This document shows, piece after piece, positions 2-58,136 of a DNA stretch of 64,000 nt. How positions within the stretch are numbered: position 1 is the stretch's first letter; each line of letters begins with the position of its first letter. Location: contig JBAZKQ010000001.1 of assembly GCA_041650715.1 (NCBI GenBank), forward strand, positions 6,945 to 70,944, written 5' to 3'. This DNA comes from Patescibacteria group bacterium. GTDB lineage: Bacteria; Patescibacteriota; Patescibacteriia; Patescibacteriales; UBA12465. A program made the position numbers and the translations under genes. The notes under the pieces were generated by a model. It saw only the letters and a list, made by a program, of their open reading frames with translations. It was not told the origin of the DNA and did not search any database.

Positions 2-376
2 GGCCTGGGTTATATAAAATTGGGGCAAAGCGCGACGACATTCTCGGGAGGCGAGGCGCAAAGAATAAAATTGGCGACCGAATTATCACGCCGGGCAACT
101 GGTAAGACCTTGTATATTTTAGACGAACCGACGACCGGTTTGCATTTTGCGGATATTGATCGCTTGCTTAAAGTTTTGAATATGCTGGTTGATCAAGGAA
201 ATACCGTTTTAATTATTGAACATAATTTAGATGTCATTAAATCGGTTGATTGGGTTATTGACCTTGGTCCGGACGGCGGTGAAGCCGGGGGAACGCTCGT
301 GGCAGCCGGAACCCCACCGGAAGTGGCAAAAGTTGCCAAAAGCTTTACCGGTCAGTATTTAAAGAAGTTATTATAA
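2..376 (+). CDS. uvrA: Excinuclease ABC subunit A, C-terminal fragment (5' end outside window)
   Basis: Open from the window edge. The translation [27 protein letters not shown]...[20 protein letters not shown]...[24 protein letters not shown] is the second ABC signature/Walker B/H-loop block typical of the UvrA C-terminus. TAA stop at 374-376. Confidence 0.9.
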
Positions 377-868
377 TTGGCTTAAAATTTTCAAACTGAT
401 TCTTTTATCAGTTGTGTCTAAAACGGCGAAGGTCGCCGGGTTAATGTCTCCGGCCAGATTGCCGGGATTAACGATATAAGTTCCATTTTCTTTTTCGATC
501 CAGGGTTTATGGCTGTGGCCATAAAATATAAAGTCCAAGGGCGCAGTGGCCGCCGCTTGGACTTTTTTTATTTTTACAGGTTCGTGGCAAAGGCCGATGT
601 TTACCTCGGCGATACTAAAAACGCCAATGGCGCCAAAGTATTTAAGATTTTTAAATTTGGTTAATTTTTCTTCTTCGTAAATTTCGGCATTGCCGGCGAC
701 AACAAAAATCTCACCCGTAAAAGCACGGGTGAGATAAGTAATTGTTTCAAGGGTAGTGATATCGCCGCAGATAATAAGTTTTTGAATTTCTTTTTTCAAG
801 CACCAATCAAGACAGGTCTTTAGCGTAACTAAATTATCGTGAATATCGGAAATAATCGCAACCAGCAT
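371..868 (-). CDS. Metallophosphoesterase, YfcE/MJ0936-like
   Basis: 165-aa ORF with calcineurin-fold metal-ligand motifs in canonical order (SDIHDN, CGDI, GNAE, GHSHKP). It starts 3 nt after the stop of the upstream minus-strand gene, so it is the last gene of a 4-gene operon. Its 3' end overlaps the uvrA stop by 6 nt (convergent). Confidence 0.8.
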
Positions 869-871
869 ATT

Positions 872-1447
872 TTATTTTTTACCGCGCAACTTAATTTCAT
901 AGGCCATTTGTTCGAGCTTCCGTAAGTGGCCGCGCGCCTGGTCGTACTTAGTACGCAGATAACCCGTCATATCGAAATCAATCAATTGGCCCATAATATC
1001 TTCGGCCATTTTTTTGGTTTTTGCTACCTCCGAAAATTTACCGCCGGCCGCTTGGTTAGTCGCGTAGCGGACAAGTTCGCCGATCATATCGCAGATGCCG
1101 CCAAGATAGGATTCATAATCAAGTTTGATGCCTTTAACCGCTTCAATCTTTTTATTTTTTACTGCCAGATATAAAGTTTTTCCTTCTAAGTATTCTTCCG
1201 CTGCCGCCTTATAAGCGCCTTCGCGATGCAAGCGTTCAAAGCCAAAGCGGCTTTCTAAATTTTTTAAAGCCTTTTCAATATCGTCGATTTTAGTTTCGGC
1301 CGCTTTAAAGTCCTGGCGTTGCAGGGCAAAAATAGTTTTTTTGGCTTCGAAAAGAATATTATTGGCGCCGCTAATTATTTGGCGTCTGGCTGATTCGTTT
1401 CCGCGGTAATCATTTTTTAATTGTTCAAGAAATTTGTCGTTAATCAT
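872..1447 (-). CDS. Translin-family-like helical protein (putative nucleic-acid binding)
   Basis: 191-aa ORF. The C-terminal half (AAEEYLEGKTLY...YESYLGGICDMIGELVRYA) matches my recollection of the translin/TRAX signature (YLxG-x-xD-x-xGEL-xR). The assignment is by motif recall only. There is a 9-nt gap to the upstream pilB-like gene. Confidence 0.5.
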   Translation of the reverse strand: MINDKFLEQLKNDYRGNESARRQIISGANNILFEAKKTIFALQRQDFKAAETKIDDIEKALKNLESRFGFERLHREGAYKAAAEEYLEGKTLYLAVKNKKIEAVKGIKLDYESYLGGICDMIGELVRYATNQAAGGKFSEVAKTKKMAEDIMGQLIDFDMTGYLRTKYDQARGHLRKLEQMAYEIKLRGKK

Positions 1448-1456
1448 AGTAGATTT

Positions 1457-4400
1457 TTATATTACTCTAAAGACTTCTTCGATACTGGTCTCGCCGGCGA
1501 GAGCCTTTAATATCCCGTCCTGGAGCATCGTCACCGTCCCGTTTTTAATTGCGGCGGTTTCGATGTCAAAATCGGTAACGTTATCGGATTGAATTAATTT
1601 TTGAATTTCTGGGGTCATGGTAATTGTTTCGTATAAGCCCAGGCGGCCCTTATAGCCGATCTGGCTGCATTTTTCGCAACCGACGCCATGATAGAAAGTT
1701 AATTTCTCCGGAATTTTTACGCCGGGATTATTGATTTGTCCCAGAACTTCTTGAACCCGTTTTAAGTCTTCGGCCGAGAGTTCTGTTTCTTTCTTGCAGA
1801 ATGGGCAGAGACGGCGCACTAAGCGCTGGCCGATGGTAAATTCAATCGCATTGGCTAAAGTCTGACGATCAAGTCCGAGCCCGGCAAAGCGGGAAATGGC
1901 GCCGGCGGCGCTATTAGCGTGGATAGTCGATAAAACTAAGTGGCCGGTGAGTGATGCTTCCATGGCAATCTTGGCGGTTTCGGTATCGCGGATTTCGCCA
2001 ATCATCATAATATTAGGATTTTGGCGCAGGAGTGAGCGCATGGCGGAAGCGAAAGTATAACCGCCGGCTTCATCGATTTGCGTTTGCATAACACCGGGCA
2101 GCTGGTATTCAATCGGGTCCTCGACGGTAATAATTTTAACGTCAGGCTTATTTAATTTATTCAAAATACTGTAAAGAGTCGTGGTTTTGCCGCTGCCGGT
2201 TGGACCGGTGGTGATAATAATACCCCGAGTTTTTTTCATGGCGGCTTGGAGCGAATCAAAAGCGACTGAGGTGATACCAAGTTTATCCATGCTTAAGTTA
2301 ACGGCATTGGTCGCCAGCAAGCGGATAACAATCGTTTCACCGTAACCGCCGGCAATAATCGAAAGGCGGCAATCAAGTTTGCGATCAGGCAGATAAACGC
2401 TGAAGCGGCCATCGAAAGTCGCGCGTTTAATATTGGTTGCCTCGCCGGCGAGAATTTTTATTTCAGATAACAAGGGTAGATAGCTTGTTTTTGGTAATTT
2501 TAGAACATCATGTAAAACACCGTCAATACGGAAGCGGATATGGACGTCAGTTTCCGTCGGTTCAATATGAATATCGCCGGCATCACTCACGACGGCGAGA
2601 GCCATCACCAGGTTAACTAGTTCTGAGGTCGGTATTTCTTTAACGCGCGCGGCGATATCTTCGATGTTTTGACCGAGAGCGACCGCCTTATCATATTCAG
2701 CCGCCGAAATTTTAACGCCGCGGCCGATGGTTTGTGAAATTACGATATCATAAAGCTCGTCGATATAATCAAAGTTTCCGACAACGCGATAAACTTCGTC
2801 GAGGGAAGTAATACCCTCGAGAACTTTAAGAACACCGTCTTGCAACATTGTTACCATGCCGTTTTCAATCGCTTGTTGTAGAATTTTAAATGATGGGGCG
2901 TTGTCAATCGTTAATTGCTTCAAGTTATCGCTCATCGTAAAAATTTCATAAATACCGAGGCGGCCTTTATAGCCGATAAAGTTGCACTCCGCACAGCCCG
3001 GTCCGGCCTGATAAACGCGCGGTAGTTTGGCCGGTATGTTAAGGCCGGCTTTGGGTGAAACCACCGCTAAGATTTTATTAACCTGTTCTAATTCGCTTAC
3101 ATTTAATTCATGTTCAACGCGGCAGTGCGGACAGAGTTTACGCAAAAGGCGCTGGCCGATGACCGCATTGATTGAGGGGACAAGAAAATAAGGTTTTACG
3201 CCGATATCGACTAAGCGCGGAATAACGCCGGCCGCATCATTAGTATGAAGGGTTGATAAAACCAAATGGCCGGTCAGTGATGCTTGGACAGATATTTCCG
3301 CTGTTTCTAAATCACGGATTTCCCCGACCATGACAATATTTGGGTCTTGGCGCAGAACCGAACGCAGACCGTCGGAAAAAGTATAACCGCGCTTGGTTTC
3401 GACTTGGCTTTGGTTTATGCCTTTTAATTGATATTCAATCGGATCTTCCAGGGTAATAATTTTAGTGCCCGGGAGATTTAATTTATTGATAATCGAGTAA
3501 AGAGTGGTTGTTTTACCGCTTCCGGTCGGGCCGGTCGTCAGAATTAAGCCGTTGGGCTTCGATATTTCTTTGGTTAAGAGCGGCATTATTTCTGGCCGTA
3601 TCCCCAGGTTTTCCAGGCTCATGAGCGCTTCGGTCGAATCTAGTAGTCGCATCACGACGCTTTCGCCATACGCAGTCGGTAAGAAGGAACAGCGAACATC
3701 AATTTTTTTATTTTTTAAATAAATAGTATAGCGTCCGTCTTGTGGTTTATTCTCGATATTAATTTTTACGCGGGCCAATATCTTTAAGCGGGAAATAATT
3801 TTTTTCCATTTATCGCGGTTAACCATGGCCGCTTCCTGCAAAACGCCGTCGATTCTAATTCTAATGGCGACTCCGTTTTCTTCCGCTTCAATATGGATAT
3901 CGCTGGCACCGACCTTGAGGGCGGTCGCAAGCATTAGGGTAATAACGTCGGAAATATTGACGTCGCTAATTTTATCGTTTAGGTTTTTATAGTTAGAAAT
4001 TTCATTCTTAAATTTCTCGAGGCTATCTTCGCTTATTTCAACGCCGCTTTCGTAACGTTTTACCTTGGGGATACCTTTGTAGGCCTCAAAAGCGTAGTTT
4101 AAACTATTTTGCGAAACCAAATAAAGCCGTCCCTGGGCAAAATATTGTTCGTCTAAGAGAGCGAGCTCGTTTAATATTTCGGGCGTCGACTCAAGACAGG
4201 CTAAGCGAATATTTTTACCGTCGTAGAAGAAACAAACCAGGTTTAGTTCTCGCGCTCTTTCTTCTTGAATTAAGGTTAGAGCCTCGGGGCTAATCGGAAA
4301 GCTAAATAAATTAACGTATGATAAGCCTTGCGCCTGAGCGCGCTCTTCGGTTTGTTTTTCTATTTCTTTAAGTTTGATTTCCGTCTGCTTTTTAGCAAAA

Positions 4401-4468
4401 CGACCGGTGACGCTTTCCTCGTCATCGGTCGGATTAATCAAATTTTCGATTGTGCTTAAATCGCCCAT
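1457..4468 (-). CDS. Tandem (double-core) PilB/GspE-family type II/IV secretion ATPase
   Basis: 1003-aa ORF. It has an N-terminal T2SSE_N-like region, then two full ATPase cores. Each core has Walker A GPTGSGKTTT (coding nt approx 3507-3536 and 2183-2212), an Asp box (ITLEDPIEYQL / ITVEDPIEYQL), Walker B (IVMVGEIRD / IMMIGEIRD), a His box (LVLSTLHTNDA / LVLSTIHANSA) and a tetracysteine (CPHC..CAEC / CPFC..CEKC). Confidence 0.9.
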   Translation of the reverse strand: MGDLSTIENLINPTDDEESVTGRFAKKQTEIKLKEIEKQTEERAQAQGLSYVNLFSFPISPEALTLIQEERARELNLVCFFYDGKNIRLACLESTPEILNELALLDEQYFAQGRLYLVSQNSLNYAFEAYKGIPKVKRYESGVEISEDSLEKFKNEISNYKNLNDKISDVNISDVITLMLATALKVGASDIHIEAEENGVAIRIRIDGVLQEAAMVNRDKWKKIISRLKILARVKINIENKPQDGRYTIYLKNKKIDVRCSFLPTAYGESVVMRLLDSTEALMSLENLGIRPEIMPLLTKEISKPNGLILTTGPTGSGKTTTLYSIINKLNLPGTKIITLEDPIEYQLKGINQSQVETKRGYTFSDGLRSVLRQDPNIVMVGEIRDLETAEISVQASLTGHLVLSTLHTNDAAGVIPRLVDIGVKPYFLVPSINAVIGQRLLRKLCPHCRVEHELNVSELEQVNKILAVVSPKAGLNIPAKLPRVYQAGPGCAECNFIGYKGRLGIYEIFTMSDNLKQLTIDNAPSFKILQQAIENGMVTMLQDGVLKVLEGITSLDEVYRVVGNFDYIDELYDIVISQTIGRGVKISAAEYDKAVALGQNIEDIAARVKEIPTSELVNLVMALAVVSDAGDIHIEPTETDVHIRFRIDGVLHDVLKLPKTSYLPLLSEIKILAGEATNIKRATFDGRFSVYLPDRKLDCRLSIIAGGYGETIVIRLLATNAVNLSMDKLGITSVAFDSLQAAMKKTRGIIITTGPTGSGKTTTLYSILNKLNKPDVKIITVEDPIEYQLPGVMQTQIDEAGGYTFASAMRSLLRQNPNIMMIGEIRDTETAKIAMEASLTGHLVLSTIHANSAAGAISRFAGLGLDRQTLANAIEFTIGQRLVRRLCPFCKKETELSAEDLKRVQEVLGQINNPGVKIPEKLTFYHGVGCEKCSQIGYKGRLGLYETITMTPEIQKLIQSDNVTDFDIETAAIKNGTVTMLQDGILKALAGETSIEEVFRVI

Positions 4469-4471
4469 ATT

Positions 4472-5449
4472 TTATTTTTTTTGGAAAACTCTTTCTAATT
4501 TAGCTTTGCCCTTGTTGGCTTTTAATTGCAAATATAAATCGGTCCAAGCGCTTACCTGGAAGGTAGTAAATAGAGAACCGAATAAAGCGGCCAAAATTAA
4601 AGCAAGAAGGATTATTATTACGGTCATGCCGCCGAGTGAAAATGCCAAGCTGAACCAAAGAAGCGGAAAGAAGAAGACGCCAATGATGATAAGTAGGAGG
4701 GCGCTCGCTAAGAAGCTCACAATAAAAAGCAGTAAAGCAACTTCTAAGCTGATAAGCCAATTTTTCTTGAATAAGTGCCAAGCGTAAGTCAGCGAGGCGA
4801 CGACTGATTTATTTTCTAAAACACGGCAGGAAATGGCATACTTAATGATTAAAGACAGAGAAACGGCAATCGGTACAAAAATAACGAATAAAATAGTATA
4901 AGCGATAATAAATGATGGTTGATCGCTGAGGGCCAAGAAAAGTAGGGGCAAGCTAACAATAAAAAAAGCGAAACCGATTAAAACTTTAATAAAAATATTT
5001 AAGCCTAAAACCGACCAGAAATGCTGGCTACCCGCCGTTAGGCCGCTGCGGATGCTAAGACTATCCGCTTTTTTCTTGGGTGACATTAATTTTTTAATGC
5101 TGTCGACCAGGGCCGCCTGCGAGCTAATAGCTAACCAGATAAACAGGCAGATAATCGTAAGTGTAAGCAGGGTAATCGTTATCGTATTGAGAATAGTAAA
5201 GAAGTCTTGATGAAATAAGGTTACAAGGCCGAGACCGATTTGTTGGAATAAATCGCTTAAAGCCAGGAGTTTGTTTAAAATCCCGTAAGAACCGTTAATC
5301 AAGCCTTGCGAAGTGCTCTGAGTCATGAATTGATATTCCATTGATCCGCCGGCGACCGCCAGCGAGGCAAAAAGGCCAAAAAACCAGAGGTGTTTATTTT
5401 TCCAGGCGATAAACCAAGCTTGTTTTAAAATAGATCGATACGAGAACAT
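4472..5449 (-). CDS. Polytopic membrane protein, function unknown
   Basis: 325-aa ORF with at least 6-7 long hydrophobic segments. Its stop is 3 nt upstream of the pilB-like start, so it is the first gene of the minus-strand operon. I recognise no catalytic motif. Confidence 0.65.
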   Translation of the reverse strand: MFSYRSILKQAWFIAWKNKHLWFFGLFASLAVAGGSMEYQFMTQSTSQGLINGSYGILNKLLALSDLFQQIGLGLVTLFHQDFFTILNTITITLLTLTIICLFIWLAISSQAALVDSIKKLMSPKKKADSLSIRSGLTAGSQHFWSVLGLNIFIKVLIGFAFFIVSLPLLFLALSDQPSFIIAYTILFVIFVPIAVSLSLIIKYAISCRVLENKSVVASLTYAWHLFKKNWLISLEVALLLFIVSFLASALLLIIIGVFFFPLLWFSLAFSLGGMTVIIILLALILAALFGSLFTTFQVSAWTDLYLQLKANKGKAKLERVFQKK

Positions 5450-5494: not shown

Positions 5495-5563
5495 TATAAC
5501 ATAATTCAATAATTAATACCAAATAATCCGGAGTTAGCAGAACGGAATTTTAAGAATATTTCT

Positions 5564-9255: not shown

Positions 9256-10020
9256 TTAGACGATTATGCGCAGGGGGTTGATTGGTTCGAAGCGGACGAA
9301 TTTTTCCGATTCGGGAATTGCTACTTCGAATTGGCTTCCATTTTTGGTAACGCCGAGTTTTAATTCATAGTCGGCGATTGCGATTTGAGCAGGCTCTTCG
9401 GTCCCGTCAGGTTTTTTTACCATCGGTATGTCTTCACCCTTGCGCAAGTAGTTGTTTCTTAAAACGGCCACTTTCCCAGATTTTCTTACAGGGTCGATGT
9501 TGATATTTAACATCTGCCTGCCACTCAGGATTTCCGTTTTTTTTGTAATGGTCACTTTGGCAATAATGAATGATCCGAAATATTCGGGCCCAATAAAGAA
9601 ATGGCGAGCGACAGTCGGTCGCAAAGAGCCATTAGCGTTTCTGGTAGTCATGTCGCCATTTTGGTAATGAGCCGGTATTTCGAGATGTGTTAGTCCGTCG
9701 AGGCTTTCACTCTGGAAGGCAATAATTTGATGCCCTGAAATCGGGCTTAGAAATTTTGCACCAGAAGAAGGTAACGATATTTTGACATTTTCCTGTGAGA
9801 TCAGCTCCTCCGAATAAGAGCGGGAAAAAGGAATTGCTATTTCGGGTTTGCCCTCCTCCTTTCTTTTTCTGTTGATTTCTTTTGCCCAATTCTCGGCGGC
9901 TTCTTCGGCAACCTCGATTATGTCCATGGTTTCTTCCCAATCGGGAATCGAGTTTATTTCATTTTCTTCGGCGATTTCGGTGTCGATGTTTGCTTCGATT
10001 ACATCCAGTTCTGTGTTCAT
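9256..10020 (-). CDS. Hypothetical protein with a highly acidic N-terminal region
   Basis: 254-aa ORF. The first ~45 residues are Glu/Asp/Ile-rich (MNTELDVIEANIDTEIAEENEINSIPDWEETMDIIEVAEEAAENW). The remainder has no motif I recognise. It has its own terminator and a divergent promoter region. Confidence 0.6.
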   Translation of the reverse strand: MNTELDVIEANIDTEIAEENEINSIPDWEETMDIIEVAEEAAENWAKEINRKRKEEGKPEIAIPFSRSYSEELISQENVKISLPSSGAKFLSPISGHQIIAFQSESLDGLTHLEIPAHYQNGDMTTRNANGSLRPTVARHFFIGPEYFGSFIIAKVTITKKTEILSGRQMLNINIDPVRKSGKVAVLRNNYLRKGEDIPMVKKPDGTEEPAQIAIADYELKLGVTKNGSQFEVAIPESEKFVRFEPINPLRIIV

Positions 10021-10096
10021 GGTTTTGTCCTCCGTTTTTTAGGTTAGTTTTTTTTGTTTATTTTAAATTATTAAAGGTCTTGACTCTTAAATATAT

Positions 10097-10114
10097 CACA
10101 TTTAATTAATTGTG
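10097..10114. promoter_or_regulatory. 18-bp near-perfect palindrome in a divergent promoter region (possible operator)
   Basis: CACATTTAATTAATTGTG pairs at 8 of 9 positions. It is nested between TTGAC (10080) and GTCAA (10113). Confidence 0.3.
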
Positions 10115-10195
10115 TCAAGGATGTTTAGATTTCCTTCATCTTATATATAGTATAATTGTTTAGAATAATAATTAGCTAATATTAAGTAAAATATT

Positions 10196-11011
10196 ATGTT
10201 AAGAAAAAAGAGAAAATTTATGGCTTTTTCGGCGGTCCTGGCTTTAACCCTGGTATTACTCGGACTTATGCGAAATTTGGGCCAAGGTAAGCCAGAAATT
10301 GATTTTTTTGACGTTGGTCAGGGCGATTCCAGTTTGATTAAAGTCGGGGGAAAAACAGTATTAATTGATGGTGGACCGGATAATATAGTCTTAAAACGCC
10401 TTGGGGAAAATCTACCATATTTTAAGCGCCGGATTGATTATGTATTTATTAGCCATTTTCATGATGATCATATTAGTGGTTTGTTCGAGGTAATTCGCCG
10501 TTATCAAATTGGCGAGATTATATATATGAGGGGAGCGGAGTCGTCAGAACTTATGGACGCGCTTCTAAAAATGGCGGAGGCTAAGCATATTAAAATATTG
10601 GCCCTGCCGTCCCAAGCAAATTTGAACTTAGGATCAGGCTGTTCTTTCTTCTTATTAAATCCTTATAGTTTGTACATTAATAAAGACGCTAATAATTCCT
10701 TGGTGGCTAAATTAAATTGCTCGTCGTTTAAAGCCCTGTTTACCGGTGATGATAACGCGGCTGTCGAAGCGGCCCTAATTAAAACAGGAAAAGATTGGTC
10801 AGGAGATTTTTTCAAAGCGGCCCATCACGGTTCTAAAACCGCTAATAGCGCAGAGTTTTTACGAGCGGTGAATCCGCGCTTAATTGTTATCTCTGTCGGT
10901 GCACTAAATCGTTTCGGGCATCCCAGTCAGGAAATAATCGAAAGACTAAGTAATATGGGTTTTAAATTCAAACGAACTGATCAAATAGGCACAGTAAAAA
11001 TAAATGAATAG
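10196..11011 (+). CDS. ComEC/Rec2-related metallo-beta-lactamase-domain protein (stand-alone, membrane-anchored)
   Basis: 271 aa. It has an N-terminal hydrophobic anchor, then FFDVGQGDSSLI, HFHDDHISG and AAHHGSKTANS...GHPSQE. These are the MBL motifs as arranged in the C-terminal domain of ComEC. The competence-channel domain is absent. Confidence 0.75.
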   Translation: MLRKKRKFMAFSAVLALTLVLLGLMRNLGQGKPEIDFFDVGQGDSSLIKVGGKTVLIDGGPDNIVLKRLGENLPYFKRRIDYVFISHFHDDHISGLFEVIRRYQIGEIIYMRGAESSELMDALLKMAEAKHIKILALPSQANLNLGSGCSFFLLNPYSLYINKDANNSLVAKLNCSSFKALFTGDDNAAVEAALIKTGKDWSGDFFKAAHHGSKTANSAEFLRAVNPRLIVISVGALNRFGHPSQEIIERLSNMGFKFKRTDQIGTVKINE

Positions 11012-11062
11012 TAAAGTGAAATAATCGCGATTATTGGCCATGTTTTAGGACTCGGACTGGTA

Positions 11063-11091
11063 TTGACAGATATATTCAATTATGATAAGAT
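11063..11091 (+). promoter_or_regulatory. Candidate promoter of gene 11192..12106
   Basis: TTGACA (11063-11068), a 17-nt spacer, then an extended -10 TGaTAAGAT (-10 at 11086-11091). Confidence 0.5.
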
Positions 11092-11191
11092 AATTAATCA
11101 AAGCTGGGAGTATATCTTATATATAGTAGCTTTGATAAAAAGATATTGAACATTAAAAATAACAAAAAAATAACAATCAAAAAAAGACACC

Positions 11192-12106
11192 ATGAAAAAA
11201 CTAATTCTGATTTTAGTTGCCGCCATGCTGGCACCAACCATTTCCTTCGCTCAAGCGAAAGTTACCAACAGTACTTCTGGAATGATAACGATTAAACCAG
11301 TCGACAAAGGCGCTGAGCTGATGATTCCACCGCACAGAACACTTACCGCAAGTTTTGCGCCATCTTCAGGAGTCTTCAAATTTTACCTGTTCTATTATGA
11401 AGGCTCAACTGAGAAATCAGCCGGCTTAATAGAAAAAAGTATTAATAAAGGCGGGTTTGAAATTACCAAAGCTGACCAATCTGGTCAGAAACAGGCTTTA
11501 GCAAAGACCACGGAAATCGGTATTATGCCAAAAAGTAAATCTTACACAGGCAGTTCATCTAACCCCACAACCACATTGGTTTTGATCGATAGCAGCGACT
11601 ATAAAGTCGTAGCCCTTGATAGTCCATTTGTTGGCACGGCGCTAGCTCCAAATCAAACCAGTATGCGACAATATACCGTTGAAACTGGTCAGATTGAAAT
11701 TACTTTCAAGCATGATGTAGTAAAGGAAGGCGAAGATATGGCTAAGGGGCGTAAATATCGCCAATCAGTTTACTCTGGAATCATTGTTGAGGGACAAACA
11801 ACGTTGGTCCTAAAAAACGAGAACCTAATGGAACTGAAAGGCGAGCCAATCGAAACTTTGGCGAAGTCACTTATTCCATATAAGTTTACATTTTCCGCTG
11901 GACCATGGAAGGGACAAGCTTTACGGACTGGTGACTACACTAAAAAAGCCCAACTCTCCGAAGGATTTAACTCGCTGTCCATTCAATTTGTCGGTTCTGA
12001 TGGCTTAAAGTATCAAGCCGATATTGAGGTTATCGTGACAAAACACGATAAACCATTGTTCTTCCGCGAATCAGACATCGTTAACAAAAAAGTAATTAAG
12101 CAATAG
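11192..12106 (+). CDS. Secreted hypothetical protein
   Basis: 304 aa with a Sec signal peptide MKKLILILVAAMLAPTISFAQA. It has no recognisable domain. Codon usage is atypical (11 CCA, 1 CCG and 1 CCC for Pro by hand count) and it ends in TAG. It has its own promoter and terminator. Confidence 0.65.
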   Translation: MKKLILILVAAMLAPTISFAQAKVTNSTSGMITIKPVDKGAELMIPPHRTLTASFAPSSGVFKFYLFYYEGSTEKSAGLIEKSINKGGFEITKADQSGQKQALAKTTEIGIMPKSKSYTGSSSNPTTTLVLIDSSDYKVVALDSPFVGTALAPNQTSMRQYTVETGQIEITFKHDVVKEGEDMAKGRKYRQSVYSGIIVEGQTTLVLKNENLMELKGEPIETLAKSLIPYKFTFSAGPWKGQALRTGDYTKKAQLSEGFNSLSIQFVGSDGLKYQADIEVIVTKHDKPLFFRESDIVNKKVIKQ

Positions 12107-12128
12107 AAAATTACTTAAATTAGCTCAT

Positions 12129-12156
12129 AAAGGCTTCTACAAAGGAAGCCTTTTTT
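12129..12156 (+). terminator. Intrinsic terminator
   Basis: 9-bp stem aaaggcttc (12129-12137) / gaagccttt (12145-12153), a 7-nt loop, and a T-run to 12156. Confidence 0.7.
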
Positions 12157-12179
12157 ATTATTTATCAGCTTATTTTCGG

Positions 12180-12208
12180 TTGACCAAGGACCCTCGCTTT
12201 GCTATACT
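12180..12208 (+). promoter_or_regulatory. Candidate promoter of the MBL-fold hydrolase/ndk operon
   Basis: TTGACC (12180-12185), a 17-nt spacer, then an extended -10 TGcTATACT (-10 at 12203-12208). The TTG that the ORF track uses as a start codon is the -35 element itself. Confidence 0.55.
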
Positions 12209-12248
12209 AAAAGTAAGCTTAGACAGCTATTTTTATTGTAAAAGAAAT

Positions 12249-12893
12249 ATGATTATCACTTGGCAGGGGCATTCGTGCTTCAAAATACAGGATAAAAGCG
12301 GGCCCGACGGCGTGACGGTTGTGACCGATCCGTTTAATAAAGAGGTCGGATTAAAGGTCCCGAATTTCGAGGCGGACATAGTTACTGTCTCGCATGATTT
12401 ACCCGACCATAATAACGTTGCGGCGCTACGCGGTACACCCTTTATGATTAATTGCGCCGGCGAATATGATTTTAAAGGCGTCCTTATCGAAGGAATCGAT
12501 TCTTATCATGATGATAAAAAAGGTGCGGAACTTGGTGGTAATATTATGTATCGGATTGAAATTGACGATATTTCCGTAGCCCACCTCGGCGATCTCGGCG
12601 ACGTTTTGGATAATGCCCAAATTGAAAAATTAATCGGTACGGACGTTTTGTTAATCCCGGTCGGCGGAACTTATACGCTCGACGCCAAAAAAGCGGTTGA
12701 GGTAATTTCGCAGATTGAACCGCGCATCGTTATCCCGATGCATTATAAAACTAAAGATTCAAAGATTGAGTTGGACTCGATTGATAAGTTTATTAAAGAG
12801 TTGGGGCTAACTCCATCCTACGAAGAAAAATTAAAAATTTCCAAGAAAGATCTTCCGAGTGAAGATATGGAACTGGTTATATTAAGTATTTAA
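12249..12893 (+). CDS. MBL-fold metal-dependent hydrolase (UPF0173-like)
   Basis: Start moved to the ATG at 12249 (MIITWQGHSCFKIQ...), downstream of the predicted promoter. The motifs VSHDLPDHNN, HLGDLG and IPMHY fit the beta-lactamase-fold UPF0173 family. Confidence 0.8.
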   Translation: MIITWQGHSCFKIQDKSGPDGVTVVTDPFNKEVGLKVPNFEADIVTVSHDLPDHNNVAALRGTPFMINCAGEYDFKGVLIEGIDSYHDDKKGAELGGNIMYRIEIDDISVAHLGDLGDVLDNAQIEKLIGTDVLLIPVGGTYTLDAKKAVEVISQIEPRIVIPMHYKTKDSKIELDSIDKFIKELGLTPSYEEKLKISKKDLPSEDMELVILSI

Positions 12894-12897
12894 AATT

Positions 12898-13500
12898 ATG
12901 AACAACCCTAAAAAGGAAAGAACTTTTGTTATTCTTAAACCCGATACGGTCCAAAGAGGCTTGGTCGGTGAGTTAATTAAACGGATTGAAAACACCGGTT
13001 TGAAATTGGTGGCCATGAAAATGGTTAATGCGACCGAAGAACAACTTTGGGATCATTATAAAAAAGATGACGCTTGGTTCTTGAAAAAAGGAACGCGTAC
13101 GATTGAAGAACGTACGTCCATGGGAATGCCGATTGAAAAAGAGGCTCTCGAATATGGCAAGGATATTATTCGCGCCTTAGTTAAATTTATGAGTTGCGGA
13201 CCGATTGTCCCGATGGTTTGGGAAGGAAATCAGGCAGTAGGTATAATTAAAAAAATTGTCGGCTCGACCGAACCTCTAACTTCCGACGGCGGTACGATTC
13301 GCGGCGACTATACACTCGATTCCTATGAACTCGCGAGTCTCGATGCTCGGGCGGTACGCAATTTAGTCCATTGCTCCGACCCGATTGAAGACGCGGCCCG
13401 GGAAATTCCGATTTGGTTTAACGATTCTGAAATATTGAATTATCGTTTAATCAGCGAGCAAATACTTTACGATATAAATTTGGATGGAATTAAGGAGTAG
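12898..13500 (+). CDS. ndk: Nucleoside-diphosphate kinase, long variant
   Basis: ERTFVILKPDTVQRGLVGELI, GPIVPMVWEG, GTIRGDY and NLVHCSD (catalytic His) are all present. At 200 aa it exceeds the usual ~140-150 because of two insertions. Confidence 0.85.
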   Translation: MNNPKKERTFVILKPDTVQRGLVGELIKRIENTGLKLVAMKMVNATEEQLWDHYKKDDAWFLKKGTRTIEERTSMGMPIEKEALEYGKDIIRALVKFMSCGPIVPMVWEGNQAVGIIKKIVGSTEPLTSDGGTIRGDYTLDSYELASLDARAVRNLVHCSDPIEDAAREIPIWFNDSEILNYRLISEQILYDINLDGIKE

Positions 13501-14023: not shown

Positions 14024-16549
14024 ATGCCAAGAACAGACAAAGAGCCAAAAGAAAATAATTCCGAAGAAGAACCGGAAATAATTCCCAACTCGCGCCGCCA
14101 GACCGAATTCGGCATTATTCAAGACCAGCCATTAGTGGATGAAATGAGTAAGTCTTATCTGGAATACGCGATGAGCGTTATTGTTTCTCGTGCTCTGCCC
14201 GATGTGCGCGACGGCTTAAAACCGGTTCATCGTCGCATTCTTTATGCGATGTGGAATATCGGTTTACGCGCGAATGTTAAATTTCGAAAATCAGCGACGG
14301 TCGTCGGTGAAGTTTTAGGTAAATATCATCCTCATGGCGACTCGGCAGTTTATGATTCAATGGTACGTATGGCGCAAGATTTTTCGATGCGCTATCCGCT
14401 TGTCCGCGGTCAAGGTAACTTTGGTTCCATGGACGGCGACAACGCGGCCGCTATGCGTTATACCGAAGCGAAATTATCCGCTATTTCCGAGGAAATGCTT
14501 TTTGATATTGATAAAGATACCGTTGATTTTATACCGAATTATGATGGCAGCCATAAGGAGCCGCGCGTTTTGCCCTCAAAACTTCCTAATTTATTATTGA
14601 ACGGCACCATGGGTATCGCCGTCGGTATGGCGACCAATATTCCGCCCCATAATTTAAAAGAACTGGCTGACGCGATCGACCATCTTATTGAAAATCCGGA
14701 CGCGAGCATCGAAGACTTGATGAAGTTCGTAAAAGGTCCTGATTTCCCGACAGGCGGGATGATTTATGACAAGAAAGAAATTTTAGCGGCCTATGCGACC
14801 GGTAAAGGTGGTATCGTTTTACGTGGCCGGGCGGACATTGAGGAACAAAAAGGCGGTAGTTTTCAAATTATTGTTTCCGAAATTCCTTACCAAGTTAACA
14901 AGGCCGATCTCGTCGAAAAAATTGCCGATTTAGTTAAAGATAAAAAAATAGAAGGGATCAAGGCTTTGCGCGACGAGTCCGATAAAGACGGCGTCCGCAT
15001 TGTTATGGAACTTAAGAAAGATTCCTATCCGAAGAAAATTTTAAACAGCTTATATAAACACACTTCTTTACAGACGACTTTCCATCTTAATATGCTGGCG
15101 CTCGTTGACGGCATCCAGCCTAAAGTTTTGACCTTAAAGATGATTCTTGAAGAATATATTAAGCACCGTGAGGAAGTTATCCGCCGCCGGACGCAATTTG
15201 ATTTGAATAAAGCAAAAGATAGAGCGCATATTTTGGAGGGCTTAATGATTGCTCTAAAGCATATCGATGAGGTTATTAAAACGATTAAAGCTTCTAAGGA
15301 TAAAGAAGTCGCCAAATTAAATTTAATTAAGAAATTCAAATTATCGGAGCGCCAGGCGATCGCTATTTTGGAAATGCGCTTGCAGAATCTCGCGAATCTT
15401 GAACAATTAAAGATTGAAGCGGAGTTAAAAGAAAAAATGGCACTTATTAAAGAACTTGAAGCGATTCTTAAATCAGTGGCGCGTATTCGTAAAATTGTAA
15501 AAGATGAACTACGCGTGCTCGCCGATAAATATGGCGACGAAAGACGAACAGAAGTTATTCCGCACGGCGTCGGCGAATTTAGCATGGAAGATTTGGTGCC
15601 GAATGAGGAGACGGTTGTGATGATGACGCGCGATGGCTATATTAAACGCTTAGAGCCGGATACTTTTAAGGTTCAAGCACGGGGCGGCAAAGGCGTTATG
15701 GGACTGACGACCAAGGAAGAGGATACGGTTGAATTCATGTTTACCTCCCTCACTCATAACGATATTCTATTTTTCACGACTAAGGGCCGAGCCTTCCAAT
15801 TAAAAGTCTATGAAATTCCGCAAGCTTCCCGCGTCGCTAAAGGCACGCCGGTCGTTAATTTTTTGCAGTTGATCGGCGGCGAGCAGGTGTCTTCAATCCT
15901 GCCTTTGGATAAAGCCGTCTTTAGTAAATATTTATTCTTTGCGACAGAGAAAGGCCTCGTGAAGAAAGTCGAGTTAGCCGCTTTCAGTAATGTCCGCCGC
16001 AGCGGTTTGATTGCGATTAAGATTAAGGATGACGATAAATTGATTTGGGTAAAACCGACATCAGGTAGCGACCATATTCAACTCGTAACTGCCAAAGGCC
16101 AGGCGATACGTTTCAAAGAAACCGATGTCCGCGACATGGGCCGCGGTGCCGCTGGTGTTCACGGTATTCGTTTACATTCCGATGATTTAGTTATTGGGAT
16201 GGGAATTGCAAAAACCGACAAAGAGAAAAAAAGAAATTATCAGATATTAACAATTATGGCCCACGGCTTTGGCAAGCGTACCGAGCTTAACTCTTATAAA
16301 GTTCAGGGCCGCGGCGGCAGCGGTATCAAGACCGCGAAGGTAACGACTAAGACGGGCGATATTACTAATGCCTTCTTGGTCAATGCGGACAGTATGGAGG
16401 GGAGAGATATTATTATTATTTCGGAAAACGGACAGGTTATCCGCACGCCGTTTAAGACGGTGAGCGTGCTGGGCCGCGATACACAGGGAGTCAGAATAAT
16501 GCGCTTTAAAGAAGAAAACGATAAGGTCGCCGGAGTTACTTGGGTATAA
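14024..16549 (+). CDS. gyrA: DNA gyrase subunit A
   Basis: 841 aa. It has [33 protein letters not shown] and the [10 protein letters not shown] active-site Tyr region, plus C-terminal beta-pinwheel repeats. Confidence 0.95.
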
Positions 16550-16556
16550 AATTAAA

Positions 16557-16579
16557 GGCCGGCTTCCTGCCGGTCTTTT
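16557..16579 (+). terminator. Intrinsic terminator after gyrA
   Basis: Stem ggccggc (16557-16563) / gccggtc (16569-16575) including one G-U pair, a 5-nt loop, then TTTT. Confidence 0.55.
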
Positions 16580-16587
16580 GCTATAAT
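16579..16587 (+). promoter_or_regulatory. Extended -10 element upstream of mscL
   Basis: TGcTATAAT at 16579-16587, 17 nt upstream of the mscL ATG. Confidence 0.4.
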
Positions 16588-16603
16588 ATTATCTTACAAA
16601 TAT

Positions 16604-16999
16604 ATGAAAAGATACATCCGTGAGTTTAAGGAGTTTGCCGTTAAGGGCAACGTTGTTGACTTGGCCGTCGCGGTCATTATCGGCGGCGCTTTTGGAAAAA
16701 TTGTTTCTTCGCTGGTCGCTGATGTCGTTATGCCGCTCATCGGTTTAATCATCGGCGGCGTTGATTTTGCCGCTTGGAAAATCGCACTGCGTCCGGGGGT
16801 AACCATGAATATCGGTGCGTTTGTGCAAAATGTCTTCGATTTTATAATTATCGCGCTGGTTATCTTTGTCATGGTTAAAATTATCGGTCGCTTAAAAAAG
16901 CAGTTGATTAAGGAAGAGGCCAAAGGCGAAGTCGCCCCCCCGCCTTTAACGAAAGACCAAGAGCTGCTTGGTGAAATTAGAGATTTATTGAAAAAATAA
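16604..16999 (+). CDS. mscL: Large-conductance mechanosensitive channel
   Basis: 131 aa. The N-terminus [40 protein letters not shown] is the canonical MscL TM1 region. Confidence 0.9.
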
Positions 17000-17014
17000 T
17001 ATTAGGGTAAATTT

Positions 17015-18139
17015 ATGGATAATTATTTGTCATTATTTTTATTAGCTGTTCTTGTTATCGGAGTTATCGCCGTAATTATTTTATTATTGCGCCGTAAGGA
17101 GGCGAGTTCTGATCCGAAATTAGATTCTTTGGCCGAGCGCCTGATTCAGCAGTCAGAAAAATTATCGAATCTCTCAACCCAAAATAGCGAACTGCGCCAA
17201 GAGCTTGATAAAAAATTATCAGAAACGCACCGGACTAATCAAGACCAATTTAGCCAGACGACCAGAATTGTGCAAAATATCAGCGCGCAATCGGCTAAAC
17301 TTATTTCCGATGTGACGGAGAAGCTGACCAAGCTTGATGAAACAAATAAACAAGTGGTAAATTTTTCCGCTCAGCTCCAGAATTTACAGGATATTCTTAA
17401 AAATCCGAAGCAGCGCGGTGTGCTCGGTGAATATTTTTTAGAGGAGACCTTAAAAAATGTTTTGCCGCCCGGATCATACGAGATGCAATATAAAATGGGC
17501 AAGAACGAAAAAACCGGCAAGGATTTGATTGTTGACGCTGTCGTTTTTGTAAAAGATAAAGTTATTCCGATTGATGCCAAGTTTTCTTTGGAAAATTATG
17601 AGCGTATTTTAAATGCCACCGATAGCGAATCGCGGGAAAAGTTTGAAGCGATTTTTAAACAGGACCTGAAAAATCGAATTGATGAAACCGCTAAATATGT
17701 TTTGCCGGAAAGAAAAACAATGGAGTTCGCTTTTATGTTTATTCCTTCGGAAGCGATTTATTATGATTTACTTGTGAACAAAGTCGGGGCAGTCAAAGTT
17801 AATACGCGTGATTTAATTGAATACGCTTTCCGGGATAAGAAAGTTATCATCGTTTCTCCGACATCTTTCTTGGCTTATCTGCAAACCGTCCTGCAAGGCC
17901 TTAAGGCGATGCAAATTGAAGAAAAGGCCAAAGAGATACGCGTTAATATTGAAAAACTCGGTAAGCACATGAATAGCTATGACGAGTTTATGAAAAAATT
18001 AGGCTTAAGTATGTCGACGACGGTCAATCATTATAATAATGCTTACGCGGAGTTTAAGAAAATAGATAAGGACGTCACTAAAATTACCGAGGGCGAAAGC
18101 AAAATTGAGCCCCTGAAAATCGATAAACCGAAAACGTAA
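17015..18139 (+). CDS. rmuC: DNA recombination protein RmuC
   Basis: 374 aa. It has an N-terminal TM helix, a coiled-coil, then an RmuC nuclease-like core (DLIVDAVVFVKDKVIPIDAKFSLENY, FMFIPSEAIY). Confidence 0.85.
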   Translation: MDNYLSLFLLAVLVIGVIAVIILLLRRKEASSDPKLDSLAERLIQQSEKLSNLSTQNSELRQELDKKLSETHRTNQDQFSQTTRIVQNISAQSAKLISDVTEKLTKLDETNKQVVNFSAQLQNLQDILKNPKQRGVLGEYFLEETLKNVLPPGSYEMQYKMGKNEKTGKDLIVDAVVFVKDKVIPIDAKFSLENYERILNATDSESREKFEAIFKQDLKNRIDETAKYVLPERKTMEFAFMFIPSEAIYYDLLVNKVGAVKVNTRDLIEYAFRDKKVIIVSPTSFLAYLQTVLQGLKAMQIEEKAKEIRVNIEKLGKHMNSYDEFMKKLGLSMSTTVNHYNNAYAEFKKIDKDVTKITEGESKIEPLKIDKPKT

Positions 18140-18151
18140 AAATAATAAATA

Positions 18152-18185
18152 AAAAAATAGCTCCCGTTTAAGCGGGAGCTTTTTG
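18152..18185. terminator. Bidirectional intrinsic terminator (convergent rmuC / 18224..18766)
   Basis: Stem agctcccg (18159-18166) / cgggagct (18173-18180), flanked by an A-run upstream and a T-run downstream. Confidence 0.7.
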
Positions 18186-18223
18186 AAAATTTGTCGTTTA
18201 TTTGCTAATTAAGACAGAGAACC

Positions 18224-18766
18224 TTAAAAAGTCAGAGCAGAAAGCATTAAAAAAAGTGCGAGGGAGACAAGAGCATGGATAAAAGACATATAGAACAGCC
18301 TTTGTACTTCTTCGGGATCACTCAAAGGGCTGGGTTGTATTTTTTTGTCGCTACCTGCCTCTGTAGTTTCATTTATTTCTTTTTGTTTGTGGTTTATTGT
18401 TGCCACTACAATGTGAGTAATAAACAAAAGAGAAGCGACAAAAAGTACGAAGTTAAAGGCCAAAATGAAATAGAAATCGCGTCCAAGCGAAATCGCGACA
18501 ATCATACCGGCCAAACTTGTGGCGATGGTTGTTCCGAGTACCGGAATCCGTCTATAAGTACCATGTATTTCCGCGGGGACTGAAGTTACGAAAAATTCAG
18601 TCAGGGAGTATAACAGTAACAGGACTGTTATAACAGCAAAGATTTCGGGATCGTAGTTTAGAGTCGGGTTGATCATCGGGGTTATCATTTTGATGATAAA
18701 TAGGCTGATGAGTGCGACTGCGGTGGTACGGATAGCAATTTTCCAGTAATTTGTCATTTTCTCCAT
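18224..18766 (-). CDS. Multi-pass membrane protein, unknown function
   Basis: 180-aa ORF with about 5 hydrophobic segments and no recognisable motif. Confidence 0.55.
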   Translation of the reverse strand: MEKMTNYWKIAIRTTAVALISLFIIKMITPMINPTLNYDPEIFAVITVLLLLYSLTEFFVTSVPAEIHGTYRRIPVLGTTIATSLAGMIVAISLGRDFYFILAFNFVLFVASLLFITHIVVATINHKQKEINETTEAGSDKKIQPSPLSDPEEVQRLFYMSFIHALVSLALFLMLSALTF

Positions 18767-18910
18767 TTTTGTGGTTTTTTTTGTGGGTTAATGGTTAATT
18801 TATCTGTGTATAATTGAATTATTTAAATGAACTGTTTCCTGAAATTCTATAACAAAACAAGATGTTTGTCAAGGCTGTGATTAAAGCGTCTAGTATATTA
18901 TACTTAAGAT

Positions 18911-19792
18911 ATGGAGGACAAAACTAACATAAAAAAAGAACTCAAAAAAATCATCGTTTTTTTCGATCTTTTTGCTTATCCCTTAAGTGCTTTTGAGCTT
19001 TGGCAGTATAGTGCTAAAAAGTTTACTCTGGCAGAAGTTATAAAAGTATTGGACGAATCGACCGGAGATATTGCTCAAAAAAACGGTTTTTATTTTTTGC
19101 CCGGGCGCGCGGAAATAGTTGAGACGCGGGCCCGACGTTATAATTATTCGAACCGCAAATATAAAAGCGCTGAGCGTTTTATTAGAGTCTTTAAATACCT
19201 ACCTTTTATTAAGGCTATTGCGCTTGCCAATTCTATCGGCGCCCATAATTTACGTGACGGTAGCGATATCGACTTTTTTGTGATTAGCGCGCCGCACCGA
19301 ATTTGGCTGACGCGTTTTATTCTGGCGAGTGCCGCTAAATTTCTGCATCGCCGTCCGACGGCCATAAATAAACGCGATAAAATTTGCCTGAGCTTTTATG
19401 TCACGACTGAAAGTTTAAATTTAGATAGCTTGCAGTTGCCGGAAAATGATCCCTACTTTTTTTACTGGCTTCGAACTTTAGTTTTGTTGTATAATAAAGA
19501 TAAGACCTATGAAAAATTTTTGGCGCTTAATCAGATAGACGAAACTGAGTCTGAGTTTTTTGCCGAGACGGAAAATGCGGCCGGTAAAAGCAGATTGCTC
19601 GACTATCTGGAAACAATTGTTAAGAAAATTCAACTTAAAATTATGTCGCCGGCCTTAAAGGCAGCGATGAATAATTCGACCGGGGTGCTTGTGAGCGATA
19701 AAGTGCTGAAACTTTATCTGATCGACAATCGCGCGGCGTATGCGGAAAAATATGGAAACAAGATTAGGGAAATTTTTGGGGAAGGCAATTGA
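18911..19792 (+). CDS. Hypothetical protein with a nucleotidyltransferase-fold-like motif
   Basis: 293 aa. The central SIGAHNLRDGSDIDFFVIS resembles the G-S-x-D-x-D pol-beta-type NTase signature. Its 3' end overlaps the next gene. Confidence 0.55.
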   Translation: MEDKTNIKKELKKIIVFFDLFAYPLSAFELWQYSAKKFTLAEVIKVLDESTGDIAQKNGFYFLPGRAEIVETRARRYNYSNRKYKSAERFIRVFKYLPFIKAIALANSIGAHNLRDGSDIDFFVISAPHRIWLTRFILASAAKFLHRRPTAINKRDKICLSFYVTTESLNLDSLQLPENDPYFFYWLRTLVLLYNKDKTYEKFLALNQIDETESEFFAETENAAGKSRLLDYLETIVKKIQLKIMSPALKAAMNNSTGVLVSDKVLKLYLIDNRAAYAEKYGNKIREIFGEGN

Positions 19793-21053: not shown

Positions 21054-21283
21054 TAATTTTTTTGCAGTAACATCAAATCCGTTTCCAGATTTTTTAATAT
21101 TTTGTCTAAGATAGCGGCGTCGGGGCGGCTATCTTTTTTTATTTGTTCTTTAATTAAGCTTAAGACAGCTGCGGCTGTGCCAAAGTAGTCGTTGCTCGCC
21201 ACGTGAAACTTTACGCTGGCTTCATCTTTAAGCAGCCAGACGGGAGGATTTATTTTATATTTTTTTTGCCGGGGAATACGCAT
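20990..21283 (-). CDS. Hypothetical small basic protein downstream of radC (uncertain)
   Basis: Start trimmed to the ATG at 21283 (MRIPRQKKYKINPPVWLL...), 19 nt after the radC stop, giving 97 aa. The 3' end overlaps the convergent Wzy_C gene by 64 nt. There is no homology signal. Confidence 0.35.
   Translation of the reverse strand: MRIPRQKKYKINPPVWLLKDEASVKFHVASNDYFGTAAAVLSLIKEQIKKDSRPDAAILDKILKNLETDLMLLQKNYHIKPNSRKKNKIPKGKLKSQ
21108..21140 (+). terminator. Possible intrinsic terminator after the Wzy_C gene
   Basis: Stem aagatagc (21108-21115) / gctatctt (21128-21135), a GC-rich 12-nt loop, then a T-run. It lies inside the minus-strand small ORF. Confidence 0.4.
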
Positions 21284-21302
21284 GGTGAAATAGAAAATTA
21301 GA

Positions 21303-22019: not shown

Positions 22020-22143
22020 ATTAATGCGTATTAATTAAAAGGGGAGAAATGACCCCGTCCTTTAAATTATAGCAAAAATATGCTAAATTTAGAACATCTT
22101 AAGTCTATTGAAATATAATCAAGACGCTAAAAATAAGAAATAT

Positions 22144-23409: not shown

Positions 23410-23427
23410 TATTAGATCTCTAAATTC

Positions 23428-26400: not shown

Positions 26401-26472
26401 TTTACGCCGAAACCGTCACCGATGTGCGGGTTTTGCGATTTTAATTCTATTTGCGAATTTCGCCAAGTTTAA
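23428..26472 (+). CDS. UvrD/PcrA-type helicase fused to a C-terminal PD-(D/E)XK (Cas4/AddB-like, Cys-cluster) nuclease
   Basis: 1014 aa. The helicase motifs are [49 protein letters not shown] and LFYVAATRA. The C-terminal part has FSTCP...GAIDRID...EIIDYKTGK...LILYQ...[10 protein letters not shown]. Confidence 0.85.
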
Positions 26473-26483
26473 TTTATAAATAT

Positions 26484-27503: not shown

Positions 27504-27515
27504 TTGTTTATAGCT

Positions 27516-56760: not shown

Positions 56761-56857
56761 TAAAAATAATTGTTTAATTTTATAAAATTTTGTATAATAT
56801 TAACAGCAATTACTATTTTCAAAAATTGTCTAATTTTTATATAATTCTTCATAACCT

Positions 56858-58117: not shown

Positions 58118-58136
58118 TAATTTAAATGATAATTTT

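Follow-up and report, generated by a model that had tools for sequence, protein, structure and literature searches.

Motors of the PilB/GspE type power type IV pili, type II secretion and DNA uptake; the symmetry with which they fire (C2 versus C3), the order of ATP hydrolysis and the coupling to PilC have been argued from crystal and cryo-electron microscopy snapshots. The known members of this family (PilB, GspE and PilF) carry one core per chain, made up of an N2 domain (N2D) and a C-terminal ATPase domain (CTD), and form homohexamers. The PilB ring is built from six rigid packing units, in each of which the N2D of one chain is bound to the CTD of its neighbor (PMC5424180). The working symmetry of this ring is C2 (PMC5424180, PMC6858323), and PilC has been proposed to occupy its pore, where it would be gripped at the N2D face (PMC5424180). 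Here, we describe a PilB/GspE-family ATPase with two cores in a single chain, encoded at nt 1457–4468 (minus strand) of a 64,000-nt stretch of DNA, referred to below as the window, from a Patescibacteria group bacterium (GenBank assembly GCA_041650715.1, contig JBAZKQ010000001.1, positions 6,945 to 70,944).

The open reading frame (ORF) list and translation gave a protein of 1003 aa, with the stop codon at nt 1457–1459. An earlier note on this DNA had read it as a single N-terminal domain followed by two complete, apparently catalytic cores, and our searches bore this out: PF00437 (T2SSE) matched as two full-length stretches totaling 777 bits, the NCBIfam GspE and PilB models likewise matched twice, and all of the motifs named in the note were present in both halves. 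The N-terminal N1 domain, which is T2SSE_N/GSPII-like, occurs in a single copy (aa 1–119, nt 4112–4468; all coordinates within the gene are on the minus strand). The TIGR02538 alignment begins at aa 38, PF05157 is on record for homologues of the protein, and AlphaFold2 predicted an alpha/beta domain at aa 47–130. The RLGxx motif, reported as c-di-GMP-binding, was not seen on reading the translated 1003-aa sequence. The N1 domain is followed by motor unit a (aa 120–561, nt 2786–4111), delimited by self-alignment and the 1326-nt repeat spacing and comprising the pre-N2 helices, the N2 domain and the C-terminal ATPase domain, and then by motor unit b (aa 562–1003, nt 1460–2785), which has the same domain order without N1.

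The two units lie head to tail with a period of 442 aa, corresponding to the direct-repeat spacing of 1326 nt in the DNA. Self-alignments showed that the repeated unit begins with the last helix of N1 and that virtually no spacer separates the units, and narrowed the junction, which the earlier note had put near nt 2770–2790, to about nt 2774–2786. The junction helix (aa 564–584, GNFDYIDELYDIVISQTIGRG, nt 2717–2779) is strongly conserved, 13 of its 21 residues being identical in all 47 family members compared; AlphaFold2 predicted a helix at aa 567–579, and the segment aligns with the last helix of N1.

Each unit carries a complete set of family motifs. Walker A reads GPTGSGKT in both unit a (aa 313–320, nt 3509–3532; K319 invariant in 120/120 family members) and unit b (aa 755–762, nt 2183–2206; invariant in 120/120), and the lysine is kept in both units of all 13 distant tandem representatives (P0121–P0133). 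Walker B is VMVGEIRD in unit a (aa 379–386, nt 3311–3334, including E383), with G382, E383, R385 and D386 invariant, and MMIGEIRD in unit b (aa 821–828, nt 1985–2008, including E825), with all 8 residues invariant in the 120 members. The Asp box is EDPIEYQL in both halves, with E341/E783, P343/P785 and E345/E787 invariant, although D342 of unit a is replaced by N in 4 of the 120; both His-box histidines are invariant in both units. We assigned the arginine fingers ourselves, by mapping the 15-residue spacing of GmPilB R271/R286 (PMC5424180) onto R259 and R274 in unit a (nt 3647–3694) and R701 and R716 in unit b (nt 2321–2368). These residues are invariant in the family, and all four were present in each of the 15 tandem representatives that we looked at. 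The tetracysteine, a predicted zinc-binding motif that has been reported for the PilB/GspE clade and not for PilT/PilU (PMC5424180), consists of C446, C449, C492 and C495 in unit a (nt 2984–3133) and C888, C891, C931 and C934 in unit b (nt 1667–1807); all eight cysteines are invariant in 120/120, and those of unit b are lost only in the distant P0131. Judged from the sequence, both cores retain all of the residues on which ATP binding and hydrolysis are known to depend, and the distant representatives P0121–P0133 also retain the catalytic motifs in both units. The earlier note had held that a loss of catalytic residues from one half would refute its reading; we found no such loss, and both halves are intact.

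When scored separately, half a reached 489 bits against the GspE model, 479 against PilB and 180 against PilT, and half b reached 438, 405 and 154 bits, respectively. The whole protein scored 873 bits for PilB and 918 for GspE, which exceeds the curated equivalog cutoffs (675.65 bits for PilB, TIGR02538; 630.25 bits for GspE, TIGR02533) only because two cores sum. Each half alone falls under both of these cutoffs, and the PilT scores fall under the PilT cutoff of 319.1 bits. We therefore treat the protein as a member of the PilB/GspE family and not as a confirmed PilB or GspE orthologue. By its predicted motifs, namely the Walker A, Asp, Walker B and His boxes, the arginine fingers, the tetracysteine and N1, it is a T2SSE member of the PilB/GspE clade that departs from the one-core-per-chain form of that clade in having two. 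Neither core matched PilT best, and neither lacks the tetracysteine, as PilT-family proteins do. Foldseek searches with the predicted model returned PilB, PilF and GspE chains as the best matches, with target-normalized TM-scores of up to 0.91 and PilT well below, and this structure comparison yielded no solved chain spanning both cores.

These data bear on the suggestion in the earlier note that the halves might have specialized into extension-like and retraction-like roles, and on the related idea that one of them is a regulatory pseudo-ATPase. Such a division of labor would be in keeping with the lack of a pilT gene in the window, with 36 aligned positions that are fixed yet different between a and b in the close family, with the slightly greater distance of b from single-core proteins (identity 0.41, compared with 0.44 for a), and with the existence of a degenerate first Walker A in an unrelated tandem protein (P0137, described below). 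However, the scores of both halves on PilB/GspE models are two to three times those on PilT models, both keep the tetracysteine of the PilB/GspE clade, and all catalytic residues and arginine fingers are invariant in both. The PilT scores, far under the GspE/PilB scores, led us to reject a PilT-like half.

We then compared the constraint acting on the two cores. Mean pairwise identity was 0.81 for unit a and 0.79 for unit b, with 37% and 36% invariant columns, and dN (nonsynonymous divergence) relative to orthologues was 0.10–0.16 and 0.07–0.17, respectively. Synonymous sites were saturated in these comparisons, and the ratio of nonsynonymous to synonymous divergence was about 0.07–0.11 where it could be computed. 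Among 129 single-core relatives, 93 columns show at least 85% conservation; unit a follows the consensus at all of these, and unit b deviates at five, each time by a conservative change. Both cores are thus under equally strong purifying selection, which also counts against a division of labor, and a pseudo-ATPase half was rejected on the motif, arginine-finger and constraint analyses together. We consider it very improbable that the two cores have parted roles in either of these ways, and the extension/retraction proposal of the earlier note was not upheld.

A repeat of this kind might in principle reflect a collapsed or duplicated repeat in the assembly, or two adjacent pilB genes read as one. 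The halves are related at the protein level (47% identity over 423 aa, BLASTP E = 1e-135), yet their DNA is only 55% identical, the same codon is used at only 49% of identical residues, and the longest exact word common to both is 13 nt. The contention of the earlier note that this is an old duplication with many synonymous differences agrees with these values. Moreover, when we took the 120 best 90%-identity clusters from a 5.8-billion-protein collection (NCBI, JGI, ENA and Logan), 118 contained the same uninterrupted frame of 1003–1004 aa, nearly all of them covering 100% of the query at 74–96% identity, on contigs reaching 977 kb. Scanning a single genome for each species, we identified 224 relatives, and among the best 80 of these, which we analyzed further, all were full-length tandem genes (65–87% identity), including those on the closed chromosomes CP066698.1 and OW818634.1. 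Homologues of about 1000 aa, which the earlier note had proposed to seek in other proteomes, are therefore common, and the conservation of the frame across assemblies excludes an assembly error without recourse to read mapping. We regard an assembly or gene-calling artefact as having next to no chance of being correct.

At least 80 species have inherited the tandem architecture vertically. Where record titles among the 80 are informative, they point to Falkowbacteria, Patescibacteria or Parcubacteria. We searched the 50%-identity representatives exhaustively and recovered 13 further colinear tandem proteins of 978–1018 aa (39–64% identity), the named members of which belong to the Parcubacteria group and Candidatus Paceibacterota. 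Many loci from the one-genome-per-species scan (L003, L004, L012–L014 and others) are titled "uncultured Gammaproteobacteria bacterium" and come from third-party-annotation sets of metagenome-assembled genomes (MAGs), and of L061 and L027 one is titled Planctomycetota and one Saccharimonadales despite a Patescibacteria-type gene and synteny; such odd titles are probably placeholders or wrong taxonomic labels. The only database label that we encountered for the tandem proteins was "GspE/PulE family protein". Full-text searches of open-access PMC and bioRxiv, with subscription journals outside their scope, turned up no account of a tandem-core PilB or GspE, in line with the earlier note, which was aware of none. 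The protein is thus a real variant of a known motor family, previously undescribed in the literature covered.

To place the duplication in time, we compared a and b units across the family. Within the clade that contains the query, the a units form one group and the b units another, each at 100/100 bootstraps (the b clade includes a fragment, P0138), and a–b identity is 0.46–0.48 throughout the clade; the duplication is therefore older than this clade. In a neighbor-joining tree, in which deep nodes are poorly supported, the main tandem groups have b units that form a loose cluster with longer branches and a units that are interspersed with single-core proteins. Three other tandem proteins showed a different pattern, in which the two units of the same chain are sisters: P0129 (100/100 bootstraps, 74% a–b identity), P0137 (96/100) and P0128 (86/100, 55% a–b identity). 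This indicates that the duplication probably recurred independently at least three more times, always at these unit boundaries. For P0128 and P0129, intragenic gene conversion is an alternative, against which stands the position of both of their halves, far from the old b group in the tree. For the old event, a fusion of two neighboring paralogues would account for the observation that the old a and b clades are not sisters (0/100), but no locus with two adjacent single-core genes was present among those viewed and the young duplicates are exact head-to-tail repeats, and we accordingly disfavor it.

Taken together, we consider it probable, though some way from assured, that the gene encodes a functional PilB/GspE-family assembly ATPase of a Falkowbacteria-type Patescibacterium, in which an in-frame head-to-tail duplication of the motor unit produced the order N1, core a, core b, and in which six cores are proposed to form a single ring that powers pilin assembly. 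Under this proposal, which takes up the trimer of dimers suggested in the earlier note, three chains would close into one ring with the order a-b-a-b-a-b, a pseudo-hexamer equivalent to the usual PilB hexamer. The ring would dock on a PilC-type platform encoded elsewhere and would drive the polymerization of PilD-processed type IV pilins into a pilus or a competence pseudopilus. Tethering b to a would halve the number of chains that must meet. To the single-ring trimer geometry taken by itself, we give roughly even chances. A parallel comes from the platform side of such machines: the PulF platform has been reported as a trimer in which two internally duplicated cytoplasmic domains per chain yield a ring of six, and TadB/TadC has been proposed to form a trimer of heterodimers (PMC10790770).

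The chief competing geometry is a stacked double ring, in which six chains would form a membrane-facing a6 ring, bearing N1, on top of a b6 ring. Tandem P-loop ATPase domains are stacked as separate rings in KaiC, in type II AAA+ proteins (p97, NSF and ClpB) and in EccC of type VII secretion, and tandem P-loop ATPases in which both domains are intact commonly stack; for tandem ATPases, such stacking is as standard an outcome as a single ring. The conserved junction helix, with its 13 of 21 invariant residues, could serve as a fixed connector between such rings. On the other hand, PilC, with its proposed place in the pore at the N2D face (PMC5424180), would be out of reach of a distal b ring, even though essentially all of the conserved surface and catalytic residues of PilB are preserved in b. 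The six cytoplasmic domains of the proposed platform match six cores and not twelve (PMC10790770), and the lack of a spacer between units in the young independent duplicates would leave a short tether for a ring-to-ring link.

A pair of positions that differ between the cores speaks to both geometries. R227, in the N2 helix ("SRLKIL"), is shared by 109 of 129 single-core proteins and 18/18 a halves; the equivalent column is replaced in 15/15 old b halves, and R is kept in the three young duplicates. At column 391, five residues after the Walker B aspartate, an acidic residue has become basic in most old b units in which 227 is replaced. The two columns thus change jointly within most old b units, from R/E to E/K or a like pair, which amounts to a within-unit charge swap; in the window, the change is R/E to E/K between aa 227/391 (nt 3786–3788 and 3294–3296) and aa 669/833 (nt 2460–2462 and 1968–1970). 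That old b cores alone have lost the N2 arginine is in keeping with a tether taking the place of a non-covalent contact, and the tether may have relaxed the constraint on that one contact, but the same data may cut the other way, toward stacking: joint change at 227 and 391 is what homotypic b–b or intra-unit contacts would predict.

Several points weigh against the single-ring pilus motor that we favor. If 227 and 391 meet across subunits, b–b contacts would be favored over a–b contacts, and hence stacked rings. The AlphaFold2 monomer gave a predicted TM-score (pTM) of 0.48 for the full chain and 0.51 for the two cores, with the domains confident and the inter-core geometry not. An alternating a–b ring has at most C3 symmetry, and its three chains could not be equivalent in a C2 cycle of the type described for PilB (PMC5424180, PMC6858323). 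Finally, the window contains no PilC, PilM, PilT or pilin gene, and none lies within 10 kb of the tandem gene in the 80 related loci, so that family membership and PilD alone link the protein to a pilus machine. Weighing these points, we hold the stacked double ring to be the less likely arrangement, although one that merits serious consideration, and retain the single ring of six cores as our working model.

The absence of pilus genes around the tandem ATPase had been remarked on in the earlier note for pilT and pilC, and the wider searches confirmed it. We found no other T2SSE in the 64-kb window by tblastn or within 10 kb in the 80 related loci. Pfam matches to window ORFs of 100 aa or longer included no T2SSF, PilM/N/O or PilT, and none of the six frames of the window contained a type IV pilin signature. 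The nearest single-core relatives are likewise away from pilus genes, and thus the missing pilT and pilC are not special to the tandem form. A prepilin peptidase gene, pilD, lies at nt 55993–56760 on the plus strand (A24_N_bact, E = 1.1e-33, and Peptidase_A24); on the strength of this predicted product, it shows that the organism would process type IV pilins. This pilD is preceded by two glycosyltransferase genes and followed directly by ftsA and ftsZ (nt 55993–59327, plus strand), with no adjoining pilin or pilus-assembly gene.

Within the window, the tandem gene is the second in a string of four minus-strand genes (nt 371–5449) separated by gaps of 3–9 nt and kept in 74–80 of the 80 species (L003–L082). 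Three nucleotides upstream of it is a gene for a 325-aa polytopic membrane protein of no known family (nt 4472–5449), for which we obtained no Pfam family even at E ≤ 10. This gene is found upstream on the same strand in 80/80 species loci, with a gap of 0–45 nt in the commonest configurations, but it does not adjoin the distant tandem genes and is a partner within the Falkowbacteria-type clade. Directly downstream is a translin-family gene (nt 872–1447; PF01997, E = 1e-17), present on the same strand in 77 of the 80 loci and probably in the same operon as the tandem ATPase. Genes of the translin family are an unusual component of bacterial operons. The last gene of the string encodes a metallophosphoesterase (Metallophos_2, nt 371–868; Pfam E = 5.7e-26) and is present in 74 loci. 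In a promoter and terminator scan, the best minus-strand promoter site (nt 5522–5493) fits an operon start upstream of the membrane protein gene, a weak indication in that site counts were not above those of shuffled controls.

Outside the Falkowbacteria-type clade, the gene recurs in another setting. The P0126 and P0123 loci contain TsaE, DHH and the tandem gene, with RuvB further downstream; the P0128 locus contains PolX, the tandem gene and RuvB; the P0129 locus contains PolA, TsaE and the tandem gene; and the P0283 locus contains DnaA, DnaN, TsaE and the tandem gene. Among the single-core relatives, P0143 follows TsaE, BacA and DHH, P0141 is followed by RuvB, YebC and RuvC, and P0139 has TsaE nearby. 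The common denominator is a recurring housekeeping locus of DnaA/DnaN/PolA, TsaE, DHH, the ATPase and RuvB (YebC, RuvC), without pilus genes (L083–L087 and L089–L091). Since single-core and tandem relatives occupy the same locus types, the tandem proteins appear to be duplicated versions of an orphan PilB-like gene that resides outside pilus operons.

This context raises the question of whether the protein is a pilus motor at all. The orphan lineage might instead act with its conserved neighbors in a nucleic acid-linked process such as DNA uptake or processing, a role that would be compatible with either ring geometry. In its favor, the gene was never in a pilus cluster in any locus looked at; DHH phosphoesterase upstream and RuvB (with YebC and RuvC) downstream recur in other Patescibacteria; the membrane protein, translin-like protein and metallophosphoesterase are neighbors in 74–80 of the 80 Falkowbacteria-type loci; and pilus locus 2 of TM7x (Saccharibacteria) also includes recA/recX (bioRxiv 10.1101/2024.11.25.624915). 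However, Patescibacteria genomes are compact and highly syntenic, which makes adjacency to TsaE, DnaN and aminoacyl-tRNA synthetases weak evidence; the protein bears the full PilB/GspE signature, including N1 and the tetracysteine; and the competence ATPase ComGA is itself a pseudopilus motor, such that DNA uptake would still be a type IV filament function. We therefore find a role apart from type IV filaments unlikely and continue to favor an assembly motor.

The remainder of the window yielded some separate observations. The region downstream of the locus (nt 14024–28568) is rich in DNA-maintenance genes, namely gyrA, rmuC, radC, a gene for an AddA-type UvrD/PD-(D/E)XK helicase-nuclease, and ruvB followed by queA; a ruvB-queA pair also follows the tandem gene in L086. 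Three consecutive genes on the plus strand (nt 32509–35214, 35265–41087 and 41103–46094) encode giant predicted surface proteins of 901, 1940 and 1663 aa, of which the first two have an N-terminal T4SS_pilin domain (PF18895) followed by Ig-like/TIG domains and the third a right-handed beta-helix. Two Wzy_C (O-antigen ligase-like) membrane proteins are encoded at nt 19740–21053 and nt 51876–54215 (plus strand), the second fused to C-terminal TPR repeats.

In terms of what the architecture offers, a natural chain with two non-identical, apparently competent cores would allow alternate ring positions to be mutated separately, for which homohexamers need engineered concatemers. Its fixation in a Patescibacteria lineage, together with its repeated origin, points to a selective advantage in ultra-small, pilus-dependent episymbionts. 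The current annotation as "GspE/PulE family protein" hides a distinct and abundant class, and the comparison also identifies an orphan PilB-like lineage outside pilus operons in Patescibacteria. We tentatively put forward a more specific possibility, which we hold with distinctly less conviction than the assembly motor itself: the alternating a–b ring could be a built-in three-fold motor, each core type engaging one of the duplicated cytoplasmic domains of a trimeric PilC, such that motor and platform would both be three-by-two machines. The recurrent duplication, with at least four events at shared boundaries, would then have been selected because a trimer forms more reliably than a hexamer in ultra-small cells where protein copies are few, and the arginine lost from b would mark the contact that was made dispensable. 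If this is true, the covalently linked PilB would permit a direct test of C2 versus C3 symmetry.

Finally, we compared the tandem ATPase with the known systems that it most resembles. Each of its cores is 39–43% identical to single-core PilB/GspE proteins (Geobacter metallireducens PilB, 5TSG/5TSH; Vibrio cholerae GspE, 4KSR; Thermus thermophilus PilF, 5IT5), with target-normalized TM-scores of 0.75–0.91 to these chains, and all of the catalytic motifs, the tetracysteine and the N-terminal N1 are common to both. The tandem protein differs from them in having two cores per chain. The 913-residue PilF chain 6f8l_G matches it through a single core region only (chain residues 383–884); the extra length of long forms such as PilF presumably corresponds to N-terminal domains. 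PilB1 and PilB2 of the Saccharibacteria TM7x belong to the same phylum and the same ATPase family and have conserved Walker boxes, but they are described without duplication and inside pilus loci with pilC, pilM, pilN and pilO (bioRxiv 10.1101/2024.11.25.624915), whereas the tandem gene is found in a housekeeping locus. KaiC, the type II AAA+ proteins and EccC resemble the tandem ATPase in having at least two homologous P-loop domains per chain, often all competent, but they belong to other ATPase families and the likeness is one of architecture only. P0137, from a non-Patescibacteria MAG (GCA_964384625.1; L088, nt 10001–13144), likewise has two T2SSE cores, as the product of an independent duplication; this 1047-aa protein, however, has two T2SSF-type (PilC-type) stretches at its N-terminus in place of N1, which makes it a platform–motor fusion with a 2:2 ratio in one chain, its first Walker A lysine is replaced (GSGTTT), and its context of sulfatases, an ECF sigma factor and BatA differs from that of the tandem ATPase loci. 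The PilC/GspF (PulF) and TadB/TadC platforms also owe two homologous domains per chain to internal duplication, as the tandem ATPase does; they are membrane proteins of a different fold and are not ATPases, and it is by analogy with them that we propose a three-by-two arrangement for the tandem motor.

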